44,960 nt of DNA. Origin: a virus. Lineage: Duplodnaviria > Heunggongvirae > Uroviricota > Caudoviricetes. The position numbers and the translations under genes were made by a program. The stretch is from IMG/VR virus record IMGVR_UViG_2529292828_000011. One strand, written 5' to 3'. Under the pieces are notes generated by a model. That model ran no database searches. It saw only the letters and a list, made by a program, of their open reading frames with translations, and was not told the origin of the DNA. Shown here in pieces: positions 27,668-40,210 of the stretch (the stretch's first letter is position 1; every line of letters begins with the position of its first letter).

Positions 27668-27742
<75 letters not shown>

Positions 27743-27745
27743 ATA

Positions 27746-27820
<75 letters not shown>

Positions 27821-28014
27821 CATTGGTTCCTCAAGAGAAATAAAAATGACCGCGCTTTATATCCCATTCGGAACCGAAGATGGATATTAATAATGCCGGC
27901 TCTTTTTTCAATAGAAAATCATGTCAATATTCGTAAATATATGTATGTATTTTTATTATTCATGAATTTTAGAAAAATAACATGCGCATTTAACGTACTG
28001 CACCACTTTCCGGA

Positions 28015-28706: not shown

Positions 28707-28987
28707 AACGATAACTCCGTACATTTGGACATTATCGCCACCGTCAGGTGCTAATCATCGTGGTGGCGAACTGTGCGGGGTTAGCACTACCGGGCACGGA
28801 AACCGGCGAGCCTTTCGGCTCCCCCACACAGCCCGCCATAAATCGCGAATATGACTGTGCAAACGATATGAAAAAAGACGCGGGCGCGCCTCATATCGCT
28901 CCGTAAACATCCGGGGTGCTAATCCCGACAACCGATTTTGCGGTTGCGTCGGAAATATAGCCCCGGACAATGTGTCTGGTCAAGCTC

Positions 28988-31611: not shown

Positions 31612-31767
31612 TTACTCCTCAGGTTCGTAAGCTGTGAAGACAGCGACCTCCGTCTGGCCGGTTCGGATTCGTACCTCGCAGAGGTCTTTCCTCGTTACCA
31701 GCGCCGTCACTATGACGGTTAAACAGATGACGATCAGGGCGATTAACATCGCCTTTTGCTGCTTCAT
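31612..31767 (-). CDS. hok: Hok-family type I toxin (HokD/RelF-like), 51 aa
   Basis: Translates to MKQQKAMLIALIVICLTVIVTALVTRKDLCEVRIRTGQTEVAVFTAYEPEE, a canonical Hok sequence; absent from the ORF track because it is under 60 aa. Confidence 0.85.
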   Translation of the reverse strand: MKQQKAMLIALIVICLTVIVTALVTRKDLCEVRIRTGQTEVAVFTAYEPEE

Positions 31768-31979
31768 AGCCCGCTTCTCTTTGACCTTTTGGTCGGTAAG
31801 AGGCTAATCTACGTATGCAAAGTATAGATGTGGCCTCAGATTAATGTTAAGCGTCTTGCAGGACGTGTAATGTTAACTGGGGCTTTTCTCTATCTGCCGT
31901 TGGTGTTCATGCCCGAGGCAGACAGCCTCAAGCACCCGCAGCCATTCTACTTAACTCCCGTTACCTCGCCAATATGAAA

Positions 31980-32069: not shown

Positions 32070-32247
32070 GGCAACCTCCTGTATAGAACGTACACCTGTC
32101 CTGATAAATATGAGGCTGTCTCGTCAGTGATTCAATACAACTATTGGGTATAGTTTCTGTAATTTTGTTCTGTAGAAATAGAACACAGCAACCAGTCACC
32201 ACCAGCACTTATTTAAATACGCAAAGTCCGGCGCAAGCCAACATTTT

Positions 32248-32275
32248 AGTCCGCTTTGAGCGAGAAGCGGAAGTT
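32248..32275 (+). repeat. left copy of an imperfect direct repeat flanking the 449-aa gene
   Basis: agtccgctttgagcgagaagcggaagtt; 15-bp core tgagcgagaagcgga identical to the right copy; contains inverted arms ccgctt/aagcgg. Confidence 0.6.
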
Positions 32276-32400
32276 CGCGGTTGAAAATAACACCATTAAG
32301 GTTGCGGTTGATTGATGGTGAATAAACGTTATATTAACCCACCCAATAACTCCTATAAAGAGGGAGTCATTGATTCCCTCTGTTATTTTTAAAACGAATA

Positions 32401-33750
32401 TCAAAGATATCTTTCTTCAAAATCCTTTGCTTCACATAGAGCTGGATTTATTCTTGCAATTATTTCTTGGCAATTAGAGATATTATCCTGCAGAGCTTTA
32501 ACAGCCTTTTCTTTAATTTTAGGGATATTATTGAATTTTCCTTTCATCATACCTTCAGCTCCAAATGAACCCCAATTGCCTGCAGCACAGATATGAACAA
32601 TGAGTTCGAAGCAATTTATGTTGTCCATCAAACTGGAGATGTCACCATCGTATGAATTTACACTCTGAGCAAAAGTGTTAGCTTCAGAGAAAGTTGTAGA
32701 TCCGGCCTGCCCAAAAATTGATTGGATGACTTTCTGTCTAGCCCACTCATGCCCTTTTATATTCTTCATCAGCACTGGGCTAAGTTTATATTTTTCAAGA
32801 ACATCATCAATGCTAGATCTAAAGCATCTATCAATAATTTCTCTTTCCAACCCAAGAACACTAATTGCAATCTGTACAGGGTGCCTTAAATAGGTATGCT
32901 GATCGGAGGATTTTGTAGTTGAAATTGTATCCTCAAACATTTTATTTAATCTTAAGTAAACAATATCCTCCATACCTTTTAGCAAATTACCATTGGTTGA
33001 AATACATTCCATTAAACATTGTCTTTTACTTTCATCCGAACTGCACTCAACTAAGAAATGCTTTTTTATTTGCTCAAGAACATCGTTATTTAGTGGTTTA
33101 AAAGATAGGCCTAAAAGATATCTTTTTGCATTAAGTTTTATTTGTTCATTGGCATTGTCTAATGACTCTATGAGTTTTTTCAGGAGGTATGAGTAACCAT
33201 CATGATGAAGATTTTTAACACCCTCATTTACTACGATAGCATGGTCCTGAATATTAGATGTTGGGAATAAGTATGAATTGGTAAGCTTAGATAGGATTTG
33301 GTCGGCAACTTGAGTTGTTGAAAGAACTGGCTTTGAAAGAAATCTATTTATAGTTTCTGAATACACATATCGAGCTTCTTCAGCTGTCGGTTTATGGCCT
33401 GAAGGATGTGCAGCTTTATTTCTGAGAGTTCTTAACACAGTGAGAAAGTCAGCATCAATCTCTGTAATTATTTTTTCAGATTTCAATTTATTAAGCAAAT
33501 CATTTTCGTAAACTTTTTGTTCATCTCTTTTCTTGGATATTTCTGTAAAGATCGCTTTAGCAACTCTATTCGTAGTGGCCATCCCGTCTAACTTTTTGAA
33601 TAAGTCCTCGAAGATGGCAATGAACGAAAGCACTACGCATGCTCGATGAGCACCAGTCATATAGCAAATTAGTGCTTCTCGCATGTATTCTTTAAGCTCA
33701 ACATCCACGATATCACCAATAAGCTCTTCCATATCTCTCAGACTCGACAT
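32401..33750 (-). CDS. orphan 449-aa protein with N-terminal HEPN-like domain (Rx4H motif RNKAAH), candidate abortive-infection/defence protein
   Basis: AT-rich gene with AAGGAG Shine-Dalgarno; N-terminal about 140 aa resemble DUF4145/HEPN-type domains (..LRTLRNKAAHPSGH..); C-terminal 300 aa helical with no recognised domain. Confidence 0.5.
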   Translation of the reverse strand: MSSLRDMEELIGDIVDVELKEYMREALICYMTGAHRACVVLSFIAIFEDLFKKLDGMATTNRVAKAIFTEISKKRDEQKVYENDLLNKLKSEKIITEIDADFLTVLRTLRNKAAHPSGHKPTAEEARYVYSETINRFLSKPVLSTTQVADQILSKLTNSYLFPTSNIQDHAIVVNEGVKNLHHDGYSYLLKKLIESLDNANEQIKLNAKRYLLGLSFKPLNNDVLEQIKKHFLVECSSDESKRQCLMECISTNGNLLKGMEDIVYLRLNKMFEDTISTTKSSDQHTYLRHPVQIAISVLGLEREIIDRCFRSSIDDVLEKYKLSPVLMKNIKGHEWARQKVIQSIFGQAGSTTFSEANTFAQSVNSYDGDISSLMDNINCFELIVHICAAGNWGSFGAEGMMKGKFNNIPKIKEKAVKALQDNISNCQEIIARINPALCEAKDFEERYL

Positions 33751-33849
33751 AATTGCTCCTTTTGTTTAAATTTTATACGAAAACACCTCAAGCAATTAGA
33801 ATGCCTTGCTCATCGTTGATTGGCAACATCCACTTTACAGGCCCACTAA

Positions 33850-33878
33850 AGTGCCGCCATGAGCGAGAAGCGGACGTT
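33850..33878 (+). repeat. right copy of the imperfect direct repeat flanking the 449-aa gene
   Basis: agtgccgccatgagcgagaagcggacgtt; same 15-bp core as the left copy. Confidence 0.6.
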
Positions 33879-34394
33879 TCACTCATAAAGACTGGATTTA
33901 CTATTACATTAAACTCAACAAGACCTGGCCGCACCCACTCAGCGCGATCTTTGCGCGTCCGGCCCGTTTCCGGCACTATTCCCCGTCCGTATTGTGAAAA
34001 AACACCCATGCTAATTTCTGCGCATCTGAATGCCTGCGCACGCGGGTGAATGGCGGGCGGTTTCGGGCAAATGCGGGAATTAAGGGAGGATTTCCGGCAG
34101 TAAACGTGCGAAGTATATTGATAAATCTGTACGTGATTCACGGTTAACAGGTGCGCTGTTTAGTGGGTGAACGTGAGGCGTTAAGCAGCGAGCTTTGTGA
34201 GGCGATAGCGGTTTTTAGAGCCAGCTGCAGGCTCAGGAAAAAATATTCTGTTTTCGGGGCAGACACCGCAAATGACGACATTTTGCGGGGGTCTGCCCTA
34301 TCCTGCATCTCAGCAAAGCGGTGCCCTGTTCCCACCATGAGGTTTACCCGTCGCAGACCGCCGTAAGGTCGCGTTTTCCCATTCCTTTCCGTAC

Positions 34395-34735
34395 AACGGG
34401 TTTCCTTAAAGGTGGTGCGATCCAAGCTTGGCTATATGCACGAACTCCCCGATCCACCCGACTACCACAGCAATTTAGGTAACTGTTCTCTTGATCCCAA
34501 TCTTGACAGGCACGATAAATCGCCAATGGTGGTAACCATTGGTAACTGGTTTTATGGAGCGAGTAAACGCACGAAAGTACAAAGAATTCTTGAAGTGTCG
34601 GCCTAACTACAGATACACTGAAAAGACAGTTTTGGTTACTGCGCTCCGTTAAAGCCAGTTACCACGGTTCAAAAAGTTGGTAGCTCTAAGAACCTTGAAA
34701 AAACACCATTGGTAGCGGTGTTTTTTCTTATCTAG
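34395..34735. other. ColE1-type plasmid replication origin remnant (RNA II body and antisense RNA I region)
   Basis: Collinear similarity, judged by eye, to the pBR322/ColE1 ori region (e.g. gaattcttgaagtgtcggcctaactacagatacactgaaaagacag vs gagttcttgaagtggtggcctaactacggctacactagaaggacag); weaker similarity may extend left to about 34170. Confidence 0.6.
34626..34726 (+). ncRNA. RNA I-like antisense RNA of the ColE1-type origin (possibly a relic)
   Basis: Begins ACAGUUUUGGUUACUGCGCUCCG.. (ColE1 RNA I begins ACAGUAUUUGGUAUCUGCGCUCUG..) and ends in a ..GGUAGCGGUGUUUUUU terminator-like stem. Confidence 0.45.
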
Positions 34736-34778
34736 AGCTGGATACTATCACCACACATAAATTCATTAAGGAAAAAAG

Positions 34779-35249
34779 ATGTCTTCTGGAAGAAGGAAAA
34801 AAACCGAAACACAAAAGAGAAATAATCAAAGCCTTATAGATATTATATCTAGCATAAGTGAGTTTAATAATATAAAAGAATTAGAGAGAGAAGAAGGATT
34901 TGAATTGGTTGCATTTAAATTCAATGAAGTCAATTTAATACTTGAGAAGAGAGTAGCATCTAGAATAATAGTAATGAGACTGATGAACTCTTTTAACACC
35001 AACGCCATGAAAATAGGCAAAGATAAACAATCGCTACTGTCCATTGCTAATAATTTTAATAGAAAATCAATAGGAATAAAATCGACAATAATTGAAGAAG
35101 AACAAACACCATTGATTGTTTTCACAGTAGAAGAGATTGCTGTTGATGAAAAGATGCTCAACTTATCTGGTGATTCGTTAAGAATGCTAGCCGCAATTTT
35201 AGCTGGAGCACCGACATTATTTGAAAAATTAGGAATGGCCAAAGATTAA
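34779..35249 (+). CDS. hypothetical 156-aa basic protein, first gene of an AT-rich two-gene operon
   Basis: ATG with AAGGAAAAAAG upstream; Lys/Arg-rich N-terminus; no recognised domain; followed 9 nt later by the membrane-protein gene. Confidence 0.55.
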   Translation: MSSGRRKKTETQKRNNQSLIDIISSISEFNNIKELEREEGFELVAFKFNEVNLILEKRVASRIIVMRLMNSFNTNAMKIGKDKQSLLSIANNFNRKSIGIKSTIIEEEQTPLIVFTVEEIAVDEKMLNLSGDSLRMLAAILAGAPTLFEKLGMAKD

Positions 35250-35258
35250 GGGATTAGC

Positions 35259-35966
35259 GTGGGCACCGAGATTGAAAACAAACAATTAGAAATCAATACG
35301 CCATCTACTGTAAGTAGCTATACTGCTGAAAAAAATAGTAATTCATCAGTAACTGAGGTCGCTTCAAGTTTTGCTGCGATACTTATTATCGTTGTTATAG
35401 TAGTTTTAATCCTTTGCCTTTTGCAAAAGATGCATGTGGCGATAACACGTTTTTTCGAATTCATAATCTCTGTACCTTGGTATAAAAGAACAGTATTAAT
35501 AGTCATAGGAGCCATATCAACCTACCTAACAACAAAAGTACCAACTTCCTATTCATTCCTTCCTATAATAATAGGTTACATAACCACTTTTGCATTTAAT
35601 GAGTTTGCGTCAAAGAAAGATATAGAGAAAGCAAAAGCGCCTCTTGAAGAGGATATTATAGGAAAAGAAAAAACAATAGTTCTTTTTAGAAGAATAATTG
35701 AGGAAAAGAAAAACATATTCCAAGAAATAATAATTAATCGTATTAATGCTTGTGTGAGGATCACAGGAAAAAACGATAGTGACACCCTAAGAAAGTTGAA
35801 AATAAAGATATGCGAACTACAAGATATTATTTTTGCTGAAAAAACCTTTACCGAAACGCCAGATGAAGCTATTAGAAGATACGAGAATTCAGTATCTGGA
35901 GATGTTGACATGGCAGCACAGACTATGTTTGGTGATAGCAGAAGTGAGCAAGCGACTGCTGCCTAA
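35259..35966 (+). CDS. hypothetical 235-aa membrane protein (three predicted TM helices plus charged C-terminal domain)
   Basis: GTG start with AAGGGA upstream; hydrophobic segments ..FAAILIIVVIVVLILCLL.., ..TVLIVIGAISTYL.., ..FLPIIIGYITTFAF..; C-terminal Lys/Glu-rich region. Confidence 0.55.
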   Translation: MGTEIENKQLEINTPSTVSSYTAEKNSNSSVTEVASSFAAILIIVVIVVLILCLLQKMHVAITRFFEFIISVPWYKRTVLIVIGAISTYLTTKVPTSYSFLPIIIGYITTFAFNEFASKKDIEKAKAPLEEDIIGKEKTIVLFRRIIEEKKNIFQEIIINRINACVRITGKNDSDTLRKLKIKICELQDIIFAEKTFTETPDEAIRRYENSVSGDVDMAAQTMFGDSRSEQATAA

Positions 35967-36187
35967 AAAGATCAATCGGCTTATGTTCATACATTGTAGT
36001 AAAAAGCTTATTTGGTAAAAGCCAATCTACAATAAGAGCATAAGTATGCTAAATATCACTTCAAATGCTCTATGTCTGCGATATTTACCATAACATCTCT
36101 TTCCGGCACCACCTGAGAGGGCCTCAACGAGGTTCTGCTGCTTTTCCTTGTCCGTATCTCGAAAAAACTCCTCAGATGTTCCTGCAT

Positions 36188-36224
36188 GTTTGCCTGATTA
36201 TGCGGTGAGATCTTTTCTACGCGG
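36188..36224. other. second ColE1-ori-like segment (RNA II promoter-proximal region), separated from the main remnant by about 1.46 kb
   Basis: gtttgcctgattatgcggtgagatcttttctacgcgg resembles pBR322 gtttgcaagcagcagattacgcgcag...gatcttttctacgggg, which directly follows the RNA I terminator in ColE1-type plasmids. Confidence 0.45.
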
Positions 36225-36338
36225 ATTAGTGATTACAAATGTTTAAAACGTCCGTTACTGGCACAAAGCGGACAACCACGCTAGCTCAACCCTGTGCCAT
36301 GAAAATGTCAATTCATATCTGAACTAATGCTCTTTAAT

Positions 36339-36764
36339 CTAGTAACGTCTAAAATATCGAACATTTCCCTGATAAAATGCCAGTATGCGCTGCATAACTT
36401 CACTCCTCCGGCACTCGCTACAAATTATGTTTAGACGACTGTCGTAGCGACGTATTTCTCCGTCAGATAATGACCAGATAAGATCCGGATCAACCACAGC
36501 AGGTTTCTTCACCTTTGCCCTCGAGAGTTTTTTGCGGGCGTTTTGCCAGTCCTTACGCGCCTGTTCAGACGGGAATAACCCGTAGCCGGAGTTGTATACA
36601 TCACCACTGGCAACCAACTCTCTGGCAAGAACGCTCATCAGATATCTTGTCGCACCTGTTTTAGCTTCCAGTTGCCGTAACGTCTCACGACCGCTCTGGC
36701 GCACGAGTTCCACCACCTGCCCTTTAATTTTTTCCCGCTCTTCTTGTGTAAAAACTTTTGCCAC
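36339..36764 (-). CDS. hypothetical protein in the replication module
   Basis: 141-aa ORF downstream of the replication initiator; no family recognised. Confidence 0.4.
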   Translation of the reverse strand: MAKVFTQEEREKIKGQVVELVRQSGRETLRQLEAKTGATRYLMSVLARELVASGDVYNSGYGLFPSEQARKDWQNARKKLSRAKVKKPAVVDPDLIWSLSDGEIRRYDSRLNIICSECRRSEVMQRILAFYQGNVRYFRRY

Positions 36765-40152: not shown

Positions 40153-40210
40153 TTTCTGGTGACGTTTGGCGGTATCAGTTTTACTCCGTGACTGCTCTGC
40201 CGCCGTTTTT
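40153..40210 (+). ncRNA. dicF: DicF small RNA
   Basis: tttctggtgacgtttggcggtatcagttttactccgtgactgctctgccgcc followed by gttttt matches E. coli DicF as I recall it; upstream of dicB. Confidence 0.85.

Follow-up and report, generated by a model that had tools for sequence, protein, structure and literature searches.

A translationally coupled gene pair of small ColE1-type plasmids in enterobacterial prophages: a candidate defence or toxin module

How did a pair of AT-rich genes come to lie beside plasmid replication sequences in an Escherichia coli prophage, and what could the pair do? The question is raised by IMG/VR virus record IMGVR_UViG_2529292828_000011 (Caudoviricetes), a stretch of 44,960 nucleotides, called the window here, in which two genes, A and B, directly follow an RNAI gene of ColE1 type. 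An earlier note, made from the letters of this DNA alone, described the pair as a candidate undescribed defence or toxin system. We found that A and B form one conserved, translationally coupled and co-inherited operon, and it is well supported that this operon is native cargo of a lineage of small ColE1-type mini-plasmids, located between the RNAI terminator/RNAII promoter and a cer-like site. The suggestion of a defence or toxin system is plausible and unproven. It stays live because A-B is a coupled cassette without characterised relatives, with a PD-T7-3-like neighbour in the window and Septu-like or AbiJ-like neighbours beside some of its homologues.

The A-B operon and its two proteins

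34779-35249, plus strand: gene A, 156 aa, ATG start (open reading frame call)
35250-35258, plus strand: coupling spacer TAAGGGAnnnnnGTG, 9 nt between the A stop and the B start
35259-35966, plus strand: gene B, 235 aa, GTG start (open reading frame call)

Both open reading frames were found on the plus strand where the earlier note had placed a two-gene operon. Gene A has the Shine-Dalgarno sequence AAGGA 6 nt 5' of its ATG, and that of B, TAAGGGA (35247-35253), shares nucleotides with the A stop codon and lies 5 nt 5' of the GTG, in agreement with the 9-nt gap and the separate Shine-Dalgarno sequences described before. The AT-richness relative to the prophage backbone was also borne out, with a GC content of 0.312 in A and 0.343 in B (GC3 of 0.26 and 0.27), compared with 0.502 in the whole window and 0.47-0.50 in the prophage flanks.

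A and B are neighbours in all contexts examined. The spacer TAAGGGAnnnnnGTG, or a one-base variant of it, is retained at eleven of the twelve loci compared, down to ~41-51% protein identity, and synonymous sites are saturated in the distant homologues that still retain it; the exception is a Serratia locus, where the gap between the genes is 2 nt. For the closer homologues, among them the prophage copies of Yersinia and Cronobacter, pairwise comparison with the window copy gives a dN/dS of 0.14-0.24, and this substitution pattern indicates purifying selection on both genes.

The same data bear on the possibility that A-B is a functionless hitch-hiker, plasmid debris trapped in a prophage. The replicon around it is a relic, as described below, and the module is rare: at least 80% of 33700-36400 is present in 26 of 5426 complete E. 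coli genomes, B is encoded by one of 72,556 PLSDB plasmids, no B homologue was found in phage records, and IMG/VR holds just two copies, identical and both from E. coli. However, both frames are intact in 25 of the 25 listed E. coli copies, whose chromosomes are ~100% identical to the window over the whole region, dN/dS between prophage copies of three genera lies in the low range given above, and the coupling signal is conserved. We regard a hitch-hiker as rather improbable.

Protein A contains a domain with the fold of type III secretion system (T3SS) chaperones and YbjN, in the order alpha-beta-beta-beta-alpha-beta-beta-alpha that characterises the class I chaperone/YbjN superfamily. A belongs to this superfamily by fold only, as the window protein has no match to the Pfam families YbjN (PF10722) or CesT (PF05932), and a single A homologue matches YbjN at E 0.039, under the cut-off. 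When 1.84 billion representatives were searched exhaustively with an HMMER profile of the A alignment, just 10 proteins were returned, all of the same family, which gives no bridge to a known one. The description of A as a basic protein is correct for the overall pI of 8.9, which is due only to an 18-residue tail (pI 11.7); the folded part is acidic (pI 5.2), and its fold is not of a nucleic-acid-binding type. The first seven residues, MSSGRRK, are invariant in the family alignment. A is probably a cytoplasmic protein with a peptide-binding chaperone-type fold. T3SS/YbjN-fold chaperones have been predicted as components of antiviral systems (PMC9503650).

Protein B starts with an acidic, variable N-terminal tail (residues 1-36), followed by a first transmembrane helix (TM1, ~37-57), a conserved loop, TM2 (~78-96), TM3 (~100-117) and a conserved, helical, charged and coiled-coil-like C-terminal domain (118-235). 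TM1 is very hydrophobic (Kyte-Doolittle 3.5), and TM2 and TM3 are moderately hydrophobic, conserved and polar-lined. The homologue alignment includes the invariant motifs GYxTFAFNE and LQDII, and a word-indexed search made with it gave just 13 clusters. The structure model of B is all-helical (pLDDT 67.5, pTM 0.32), with TM3 running on as a long helix to residue 165. Hydropathy, charge and the helical model thus agree with the three helices and charged coiled-coil-like tail read from the sequence before. The charge distribution suggests a topology with the N-terminus outside and the C-terminus inside, and B is probably an inner-membrane protein that acts at this membrane. A Foldseek search of the B model against the PDB gave only matches with E > 1, and those to ExbB and BAR domains were dismissed as noise, the model being too poor for such a search.

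Two further explanations depend on these proteins. According to the first, A would be a T3SS chaperone and B an effector, borne by the prophage as a moron, that is secreted and targeted to membranes. The class I chaperone fold of A is in favour, as are the position of its gene next to that of a putative partner and an N-terminus of B rich in Ser, Thr and Asn. Very hydrophobic transmembrane segments favour insertion into the bacterial inner membrane, and TM1 of B is extremely hydrophobic, which argues against secretion. To our knowledge the hosts (Cronobacter, Serratia, commensal E. coli and the Pantoea mini-plasmids) do not track the carriage of injectisomes. This explanation appears very improbable indeed.

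The second explanation is another envelope function to the benefit of the host, either immunity to a pore-forming bacteriocin or exclusion of non-phage DNA. Immunity proteins to pore-forming colicins are small inner-membrane proteins with three or four transmembrane helices. B would have a variable tail in the periplasm, if the predicted topology is correct, and ColE1-type plasmids classically bear colicin and immunity genes (PMC8683028). Nonetheless, a bacteriocin gene is found near A-B in no context, B has no Pfam match to colicin immunity families, and its 118-aa domain, predicted to be cytoplasmic, has no counterpart in such immunity proteins. We give this explanation a low probability.

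That neither protein resembles a known family was confirmed by profile searches. For A, B, their divergent homologues and all members of the B alignment, nothing significant was found in Pfam, PADLOC, PHROGs and NCBIfam, and profile searches with A and B against PDB sequences gave no match. The best PADLOC result for B is a 4TM effector at E 0.14, and there is none for A. Among 5.8 billion proteins, the A family accounts for 39 clusters (90% identity), and all named members of both families belong to Enterobacterales. In literature searches on plasmid pPA3.0, on the RefSeq accessions of both proteins and on prophage-integrated ColE1 plasmids, a description of these genes was not found. A-B is supported as a discrete, horizontally acquired cassette without characterised relatives.

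A captured ColE1-type plasmid

Homologues of the pair are found on small plasmids. The circular plasmid pPA3.0 of Pantoea agglomerans (2901 bp; L001) matches window positions 34410-36141 at 82%, and has just two annotated genes, which are homologous to A and B and follow RNAI directly in this order. Similar to pPA3.0, short contigs (2.2-4.6 kb) found in metagenomes and read archives have the order RNAI, ~50 nt, A, 9 nt, B, and several of them also hold a cer-like site and toxin-antitoxin (TA) genes. RNAI lies directly 5' of A at eight plasmid-like loci, and the RNAI-A-B arrangement of the window recurs at loci L001, L004-L007, L011, L015, L020, L022 and L023; the plasmid contigs L017 and L018 have a different sequence upstream of A, without an RNAI match. 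In the ColRNAI plasmid pKpnB1_7 of Klebsiella, a different gene, of 252 aa, is found in the slot between RNAI and the cer-like core. The slot is thus a cargo position, with A-B as its occupant in one plasmid lineage.

A gene in pPA3.0 other than A and B may be added here: an unannotated open reading frame at 2710-2901 resembles, when read by eye, a VbhA-family antitoxin. Several related mini-plasmids (H88, H89, H102 and H108) are annotated with a VbhA-type gene between cer and the origin, and a VbhA-like gene is absent from the module in the window.

A cargo of this kind could serve addiction, with B as a membrane toxin and A as a labile antitoxin or chaperone, and post-segregational killing would stabilise mini-plasmids of limited copy number and, as a secondary effect, prophages. 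In its gene order and tight coupling, whereby the upstream partner is made first, A-B looks like a type II TA operon, it makes up about half of a non-mobilisable plasmid of 2.3-2.9 kb, and the pair persists under purifying selection. However, several of the plasmid contigs with A-B also hold classical TA pairs (YoeB/YefM, ParE-type), which would make A-B redundant there, high-copy ColE1 plasmids have little need to kill plasmid-free segregants, and no similarity to known TA families was found. Addiction is in our view unlikely.

In the window, the plasmid-derived sequences around A-B are as follows:

33914-33941, minus strand: hybrid Xer-like core GGTGCGGCCAG GTCTTG TTGAGTTTAAT, with a plasmid-like XerC arm; the centre and the XerD-side arm are not plasmid-like
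33938-34317, no strand assigned: cer accessory-like region and downstream non-coding DNA, left copy, 73% identity to pKpnB1_7
34318-34324, no strand assigned: deletion junction, 7 nt in place of 534 bp of pKpnB1_7
34325-34729, minus strand: RNAII coding region, first ~405 nt, 76-81% identity to the ColRNAI plasmids pKpnB1_7 and p3-LC-1303-2020
34627-34729, plus strand: RNAI antisense RNA gene, Rfam RF00106, 68.4 bits, E 1.5e-10
34730-34778, minus strand: presumed RNAII promoter, -10 TAGTAT (plus-strand positions 34742-34747), -35 TTAATG (plus-strand positions 34764-34769), 16-nt spacing
36083-36110, minus strand: cer-like Xer core GGTGCCGGAAA GAGATG TTATGGTAAAT, found by pattern scan
36111-36250, no strand assigned: right copy of the cer accessory-like region, diverged from the left one (direct repeats D3 and D4; alignment A3)

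The replicon belongs to the ColE1 family by its RNAI and RNAII promoter. RNAI is full length (1-102), with its three stem-loops, and exceeds the gathering score of 47; it is co-directional with A-B, and its 3' end lies 50 nt before the ATG of A. Opposite to it lie the RNAII pre-primer and a stretch, conserved among the plasmid homologues, that we take to be the RNAII promoter by analogy with that of pBR322. Retained are RNAI, the RNAI promoter, the RNAII promoter and ~405 nt of RNAII. The pairwise alignment to pKpnB1_7 skips from plasmid position 416 to 950 at the junction, and the absent 534 bp hold the canonical ColE1 origin sequences GGTTTTCCATAGGCTCCGCC...GACAGGACT. The origin proper, including the RNA-DNA switch region (GGTTTTCCATAGG...GACAGGACT), was not found in the window. 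The replicon is thus a relic, and since this deletion has removed the origin proper, it should be unable to fire.

The stretch 34730-34778 is also the entire 5' leader of A, and no sigma-70 consensus promoter was found on the plus strand in these 49 nt from the RNAI terminator to the ATG. A-B would probably be transcribed by polymerases that read through the RNAI terminator, or from a weak promoter inside the leader.

With RNAI and both promoters retained, the prophage might still cause incompatibility of the ColE1 type or drive the genes beside the relic. The RNAII promoter (34742-34769, minus strand) faces left, via the truncated RNAII and the cer-type region, toward a PD-T7-3-like gene on the same strand. 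As RNAII transcription would go leftward and the RNAI promoter rightward into A-B, it can be speculated that the relic could act as a two-way constitutive promoter cassette.

Cer-like cores were defined by an 11-nt XerC arm, a centre of 6-8 nt and the 11-nt XerD arm TTATGGTAAAT; the cer site of ColE1 itself is GGTGCGTACAA TTAAGGGA TTATGGTAAAT (PMC2410131). The right core of the window has all three parts, with an XerD arm identical to that of ColE1 cer at 11 of 11 positions, and equivalent cores are present at the plasmid loci L001, L004, L005 and L020-L023. In pPA3.0 the core is GGTGCGGCCAA GAGATG TTATGGTAAAT. On the left side, plasmid homology begins at 33935-33938, within the XerC arm of the hybrid core, whose partner site has a degenerate XerD arm with 8 of 11 matches to dif. 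Around 300 small enterobacterial plasmids match 33935-34312 at 72-84%. A cer site also comprises ~180 bp of accessory sequence on its XerC side, for recombination that depends on XerCD, PepA and ArgR, and the DNA next to the core in the window is homologous to the corresponding region of these plasmids. In pKpnB1_7, the sequence that matches 36082-36137 continues straight into the sequence that matches 33938-34317, and the two segments that flank the module are therefore the two sides of a plasmid circle opened at its cer-like site. A nearly complete plasmid appears to have been opened there and then integrated. The breakpoints at the border of XerC arm and central region would fit an Xer-mediated exchange, judging from their position.

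The right cer accessory-like region stops at the edge of the prophage variable region described below. As the left and right cer-type regions are only ~77% alike, they probably stem from different sites and not from a duplication. A plasmid dimer as the source of duplicated cer regions was considered and rejected: the two copies are ~77% alike, and the same copies compared between E. coli and Yersinia are 77-93% alike.

These results change the account of how the pair is placed. The earlier note had it inserted into the origin, between segments contiguous in ColE1-type origins. Instead, A-B lies outside the replicon, just upstream of the RNAII promoter, as in pPA3.0, and the flanking segments are contiguous at the cer-like site of circular plasmids, the origin proper being deleted. 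Of the proposed discrete cargo insertion, a discrete acquired cassette remains; this cassette occupies its native slot, and the whole plasmid entered the prophage.

Spread among prophages and the variable region

A-B recurs in prophages of four genera. Yersinia prophages contain window positions 33859-36254 at ~90% identity, located between the Q gene and the lysis genes. Cronobacter prophages contain 34489-36269 at ~86%, just after the replication gene, with an RNAI below the Rfam threshold. A Serratia prophage encodes a pair that is 46-49% identical, near the integrase and without a replicon remnant. The origin is deleted in both the window and the Yersinia copies, and as the Yersinia copy aligns continuously over the deletion point, the deletion is older than the spread of the module.

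This distribution is relevant to a role in plasmid housekeeping, in which A-B would act in ColE1 replication or copy-number control, for example as a Rom-like modulator or a membrane anchor. Such a role would account for the fixed place by the RNAI/RNAII promoter, the order RNAI - 50 nt - A - 9 nt - B persists despite saturated synonymous sites, and the invariant basic tail of A could bind nucleic acid. However, purifying selection continues in prophages where the origin is deleted (window, Yersinia), RNAI is sub-threshold (Cronobacter) or no remnant is left (Serratia). In addition, the fold of A is of the peptide-binding chaperone type and not RNA-binding, and contigs L017 and L018 have the pair behind other sequence than RNAI. 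We consider housekeeping quite improbable. Since A-B is kept in prophages after the replicon was crippled or lost, it is selected for itself and not for plasmid replication.

In E. coli strain 13KWH46, hokD and a replication-region DUF977 gene flank the region, which belongs to a Qin-like lambdoid prophage adjacent to rspB/ynfA. Prophage RM11911, which has other cargo at the same site, matches the window as far as 32276 and from 36248 onward, which delimits a variable region at 32277-36247 that contains a PD-T7-3-like gene and the plasmid module. In BL21 and its derivatives, the deletion 32082-36466 has taken out the variable region in full, together with the DUF977 gene's 3' end (L024, BL21(DE3) 1591223-1591485 region). 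Further features of this region are:

32263-32275, plus strand: boundary motif AGAAGCGGAAGTT at the left edge of the variable region; RM11911 homology ends at 32276
32401-33750, minus strand: PD-T7-3-like gene, 449 aa, DUF4145 (PADLOC PD-T7-3 at E 4.2e-15 over residues 6-282; Pfam DUF4145)
33866-33878, plus strand: boundary motif AGAAGCGGACGTT, which separates the PD-T7-3-like cassette from the plasmid module; Yersinia module homology begins at 33859
36247-36259, minus strand: inverted copy of the boundary motif, AGTAACGGACGTT, at the right edge of the module (inverted repeat I1)

The PD-T7-3-like gene is AT-rich (GC 0.35), shares the variable region with the plasmid module and has no plasmid match. 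Among the homologous loci, Septu-like PtuA/PDC-M01 genes are neighbours of the A-B module in one Cronobacter prophage (L008) and PDC-S32/AbiJ-like genes in another (L014), and an AbiJ-like gene lies beside A-B in the plasmid contig L017. With the PD-T7-3-like gene of the window, these contexts place A-B in defence islands or hot spots. Between the A-B module and the Septu-like or AbiJ-like genes, both Cronobacter prophages also encode a 245-aa protein (L008 9631-10368, L014 9155-9892) without Pfam or PADLOC match; flanked by the boundary motif, it may be a further uncharacterised hot-spot cassette.

The motif AGAAGCGGA(N)GTT (also written AGAAGCGGANGTT), often after a short hairpin, is found at every cassette boundary of the hot spot in E. 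coli, Cronobacter and Yersinia. Two exact copies are present in the 45-kb window, where ~0.01 would be expected, and Yersinia and Cronobacter both have an exact copy (GAAGCGGACGTTT) in the position of the inverted one. Other copies lie at L008 9483-9493 and 10513-10523, at L014 9006-9016, 10037-10047 and 11593-11603, and at L015 7212-7222 and 9484-9494; in Yersinia, it encloses the module as a perfect 13-nt terminal inverted repeat. The motif is absent from the free plasmids and may serve cassette exchange as a boundary or recombination sequence. A reading of the 'AAGCGG' motifs at the boundaries as plasmid PriA primosome sites was unsupported, because the motif A(A/C)GCGGANGTT is absent from free plasmids.

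In strain AH01, one of the 26 E. coli genomes, an IS2 element is located at the right edge of the module near the boundary motif (L030 2839-4067, ~window 36240), with A and B intact. It was discarded as a natural knockout, as it sits downstream of B. Rfam matches elsewhere in the window include sok (with hokD), C4 antisense RNA with isrK, DicF and two tRNAs at 31762-31937, 28759-28947, 40154-40205 and 27671-27821, which fit the usual features of Qin-like lambdoid prophages.

Proposed function and comparison with known systems

Among the functions considered, phage exclusion or abortive infection at the membrane ranks first, and we propose it tentatively. A, the cytoplasmic protein with a peptide-binding chaperone fold, would be made just before B through translational coupling, and would bind and control it. 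B would expose its variable acidic tail in the periplasm, cross the inner membrane three times and hold its conserved coiled-coil domain in the cytoplasm, where this domain probably drives oligomerisation. Together they would act at the membrane as a conflict module, to the benefit of the cell that carries the plasmid or prophage. The combination of plasmid-cargo anatomy, membrane conflict module and proposed expression has, in our estimate, somewhat less than an even chance of being correct as a whole. In its most specific form, the proposal describes an undescribed two-gene anti-phage system, in which chaperone-like A gates or senses for the three-helix coiled-coil protein B. The system would be the sole cargo of mini ColE1 plasmids. 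Lambdoid prophages of three or more genera would have captured it along with a crippled replicon, from whose RNAI promoter it may be expressed, and a Serratia prophage has the pair without a remnant. In that specific form it is possible and rather doubtful.

Several observations weigh against a membrane defence module captured with its plasmid. PADLOC-DB v2 gave no catalogued defence protein for A or B, and the searches did not link the pair by homology to any family of defence, toxin or exclusion proteins. With a pTM of 0.32, the model of B is poor, and its fold search is meaningless. The Serratia context and the Yersinia neighbours are without a recognised defence gene, and the defence association comprises a handful of contexts, several of which share ancestry through one plasmid-to-phage capture and later spread. 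As for the plasmids, terminal overlaps were found in none of the small contigs other than pPA3.0, which leaves their circularity unproven, and they are still probably plasmids. The part assigned to Xer recombination is read solely from where the homology breakpoints fall.

If A-B does function in defence, exclusion or addiction, it would represent a new effector-regulator architecture, composed of a chaperone-fold partner and a three-helix coiled-coil membrane protein, and it would show that cryptic mini-plasmids of 2-3 kb can be in essence carriers of a module of this kind. The pair is small (1.2 kb) and rare. As BL21 is naturally deleted for the locus, a test of the hypothesis would cost little. 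The locus also documents a rarely seen gene flow: a temperate phage took up an entire ColE1-type plasmid, seemingly at the multimer-resolution site of the plasmid, which afterwards lost its origin, was thereby disarmed, and moved between prophages of E. coli, Yersinia and Cronobacter.

Among known systems, RexA/RexB of phage lambda likewise combine a cytoplasmic partner with a multi-pass inner-membrane protein in a prophage accessory operon, presumably expressed apart from the lytic genes. A-B is unrelated to them in sequence and fold, and gene sizes and order differ. Similar to type II TA operons, A-B consists of two genes with tight translational coupling and is found on plasmids and prophages. 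However, it has no homology to any TA family, the proposed toxin B would be a 235-aa protein with three transmembrane helices, and the proposed antitoxin A has a chaperone fold and no recognisable DNA-binding domain. RexAB-type modules and type II TA operons are thus analogies and not memberships. With the TY-chaperones (CesT, SycH, ShcA, AmyR and DR_1245), A shares the fold type at only 6-13% sequence identity, and it carries an additional invariant basic N-terminal tail; the contexts of A-B examined revealed no secretion system.

Recombination at Xer sites in the evolution of ColE1-like plasmids is the subject of work cited within the reference list of PMC8683028. As in Xer-exploiting integration and Xer-site plasmid rearrangement, the breakpoints in the window lie at the border of XerC arm and centre, and the unit lies between two cer-type regions; in contrast to such events, that of the window is ancient, was followed by deletions, and involved a partner site with a degenerate XerD arm. 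Compared with the ColE1-type mini-plasmids pPA3.0 and pKpnB1_7, the window copy is integrated in a prophage, linearised at the cer-like site, located between two diverged cer regions and without the 534 bp. It nevertheless retains RNAI, the RNAII promoter, the 5' part of RNAII, the cer-like core and the accessory region in plasmid order, and pPA3.0 carries the same A-B pair in the same slot.

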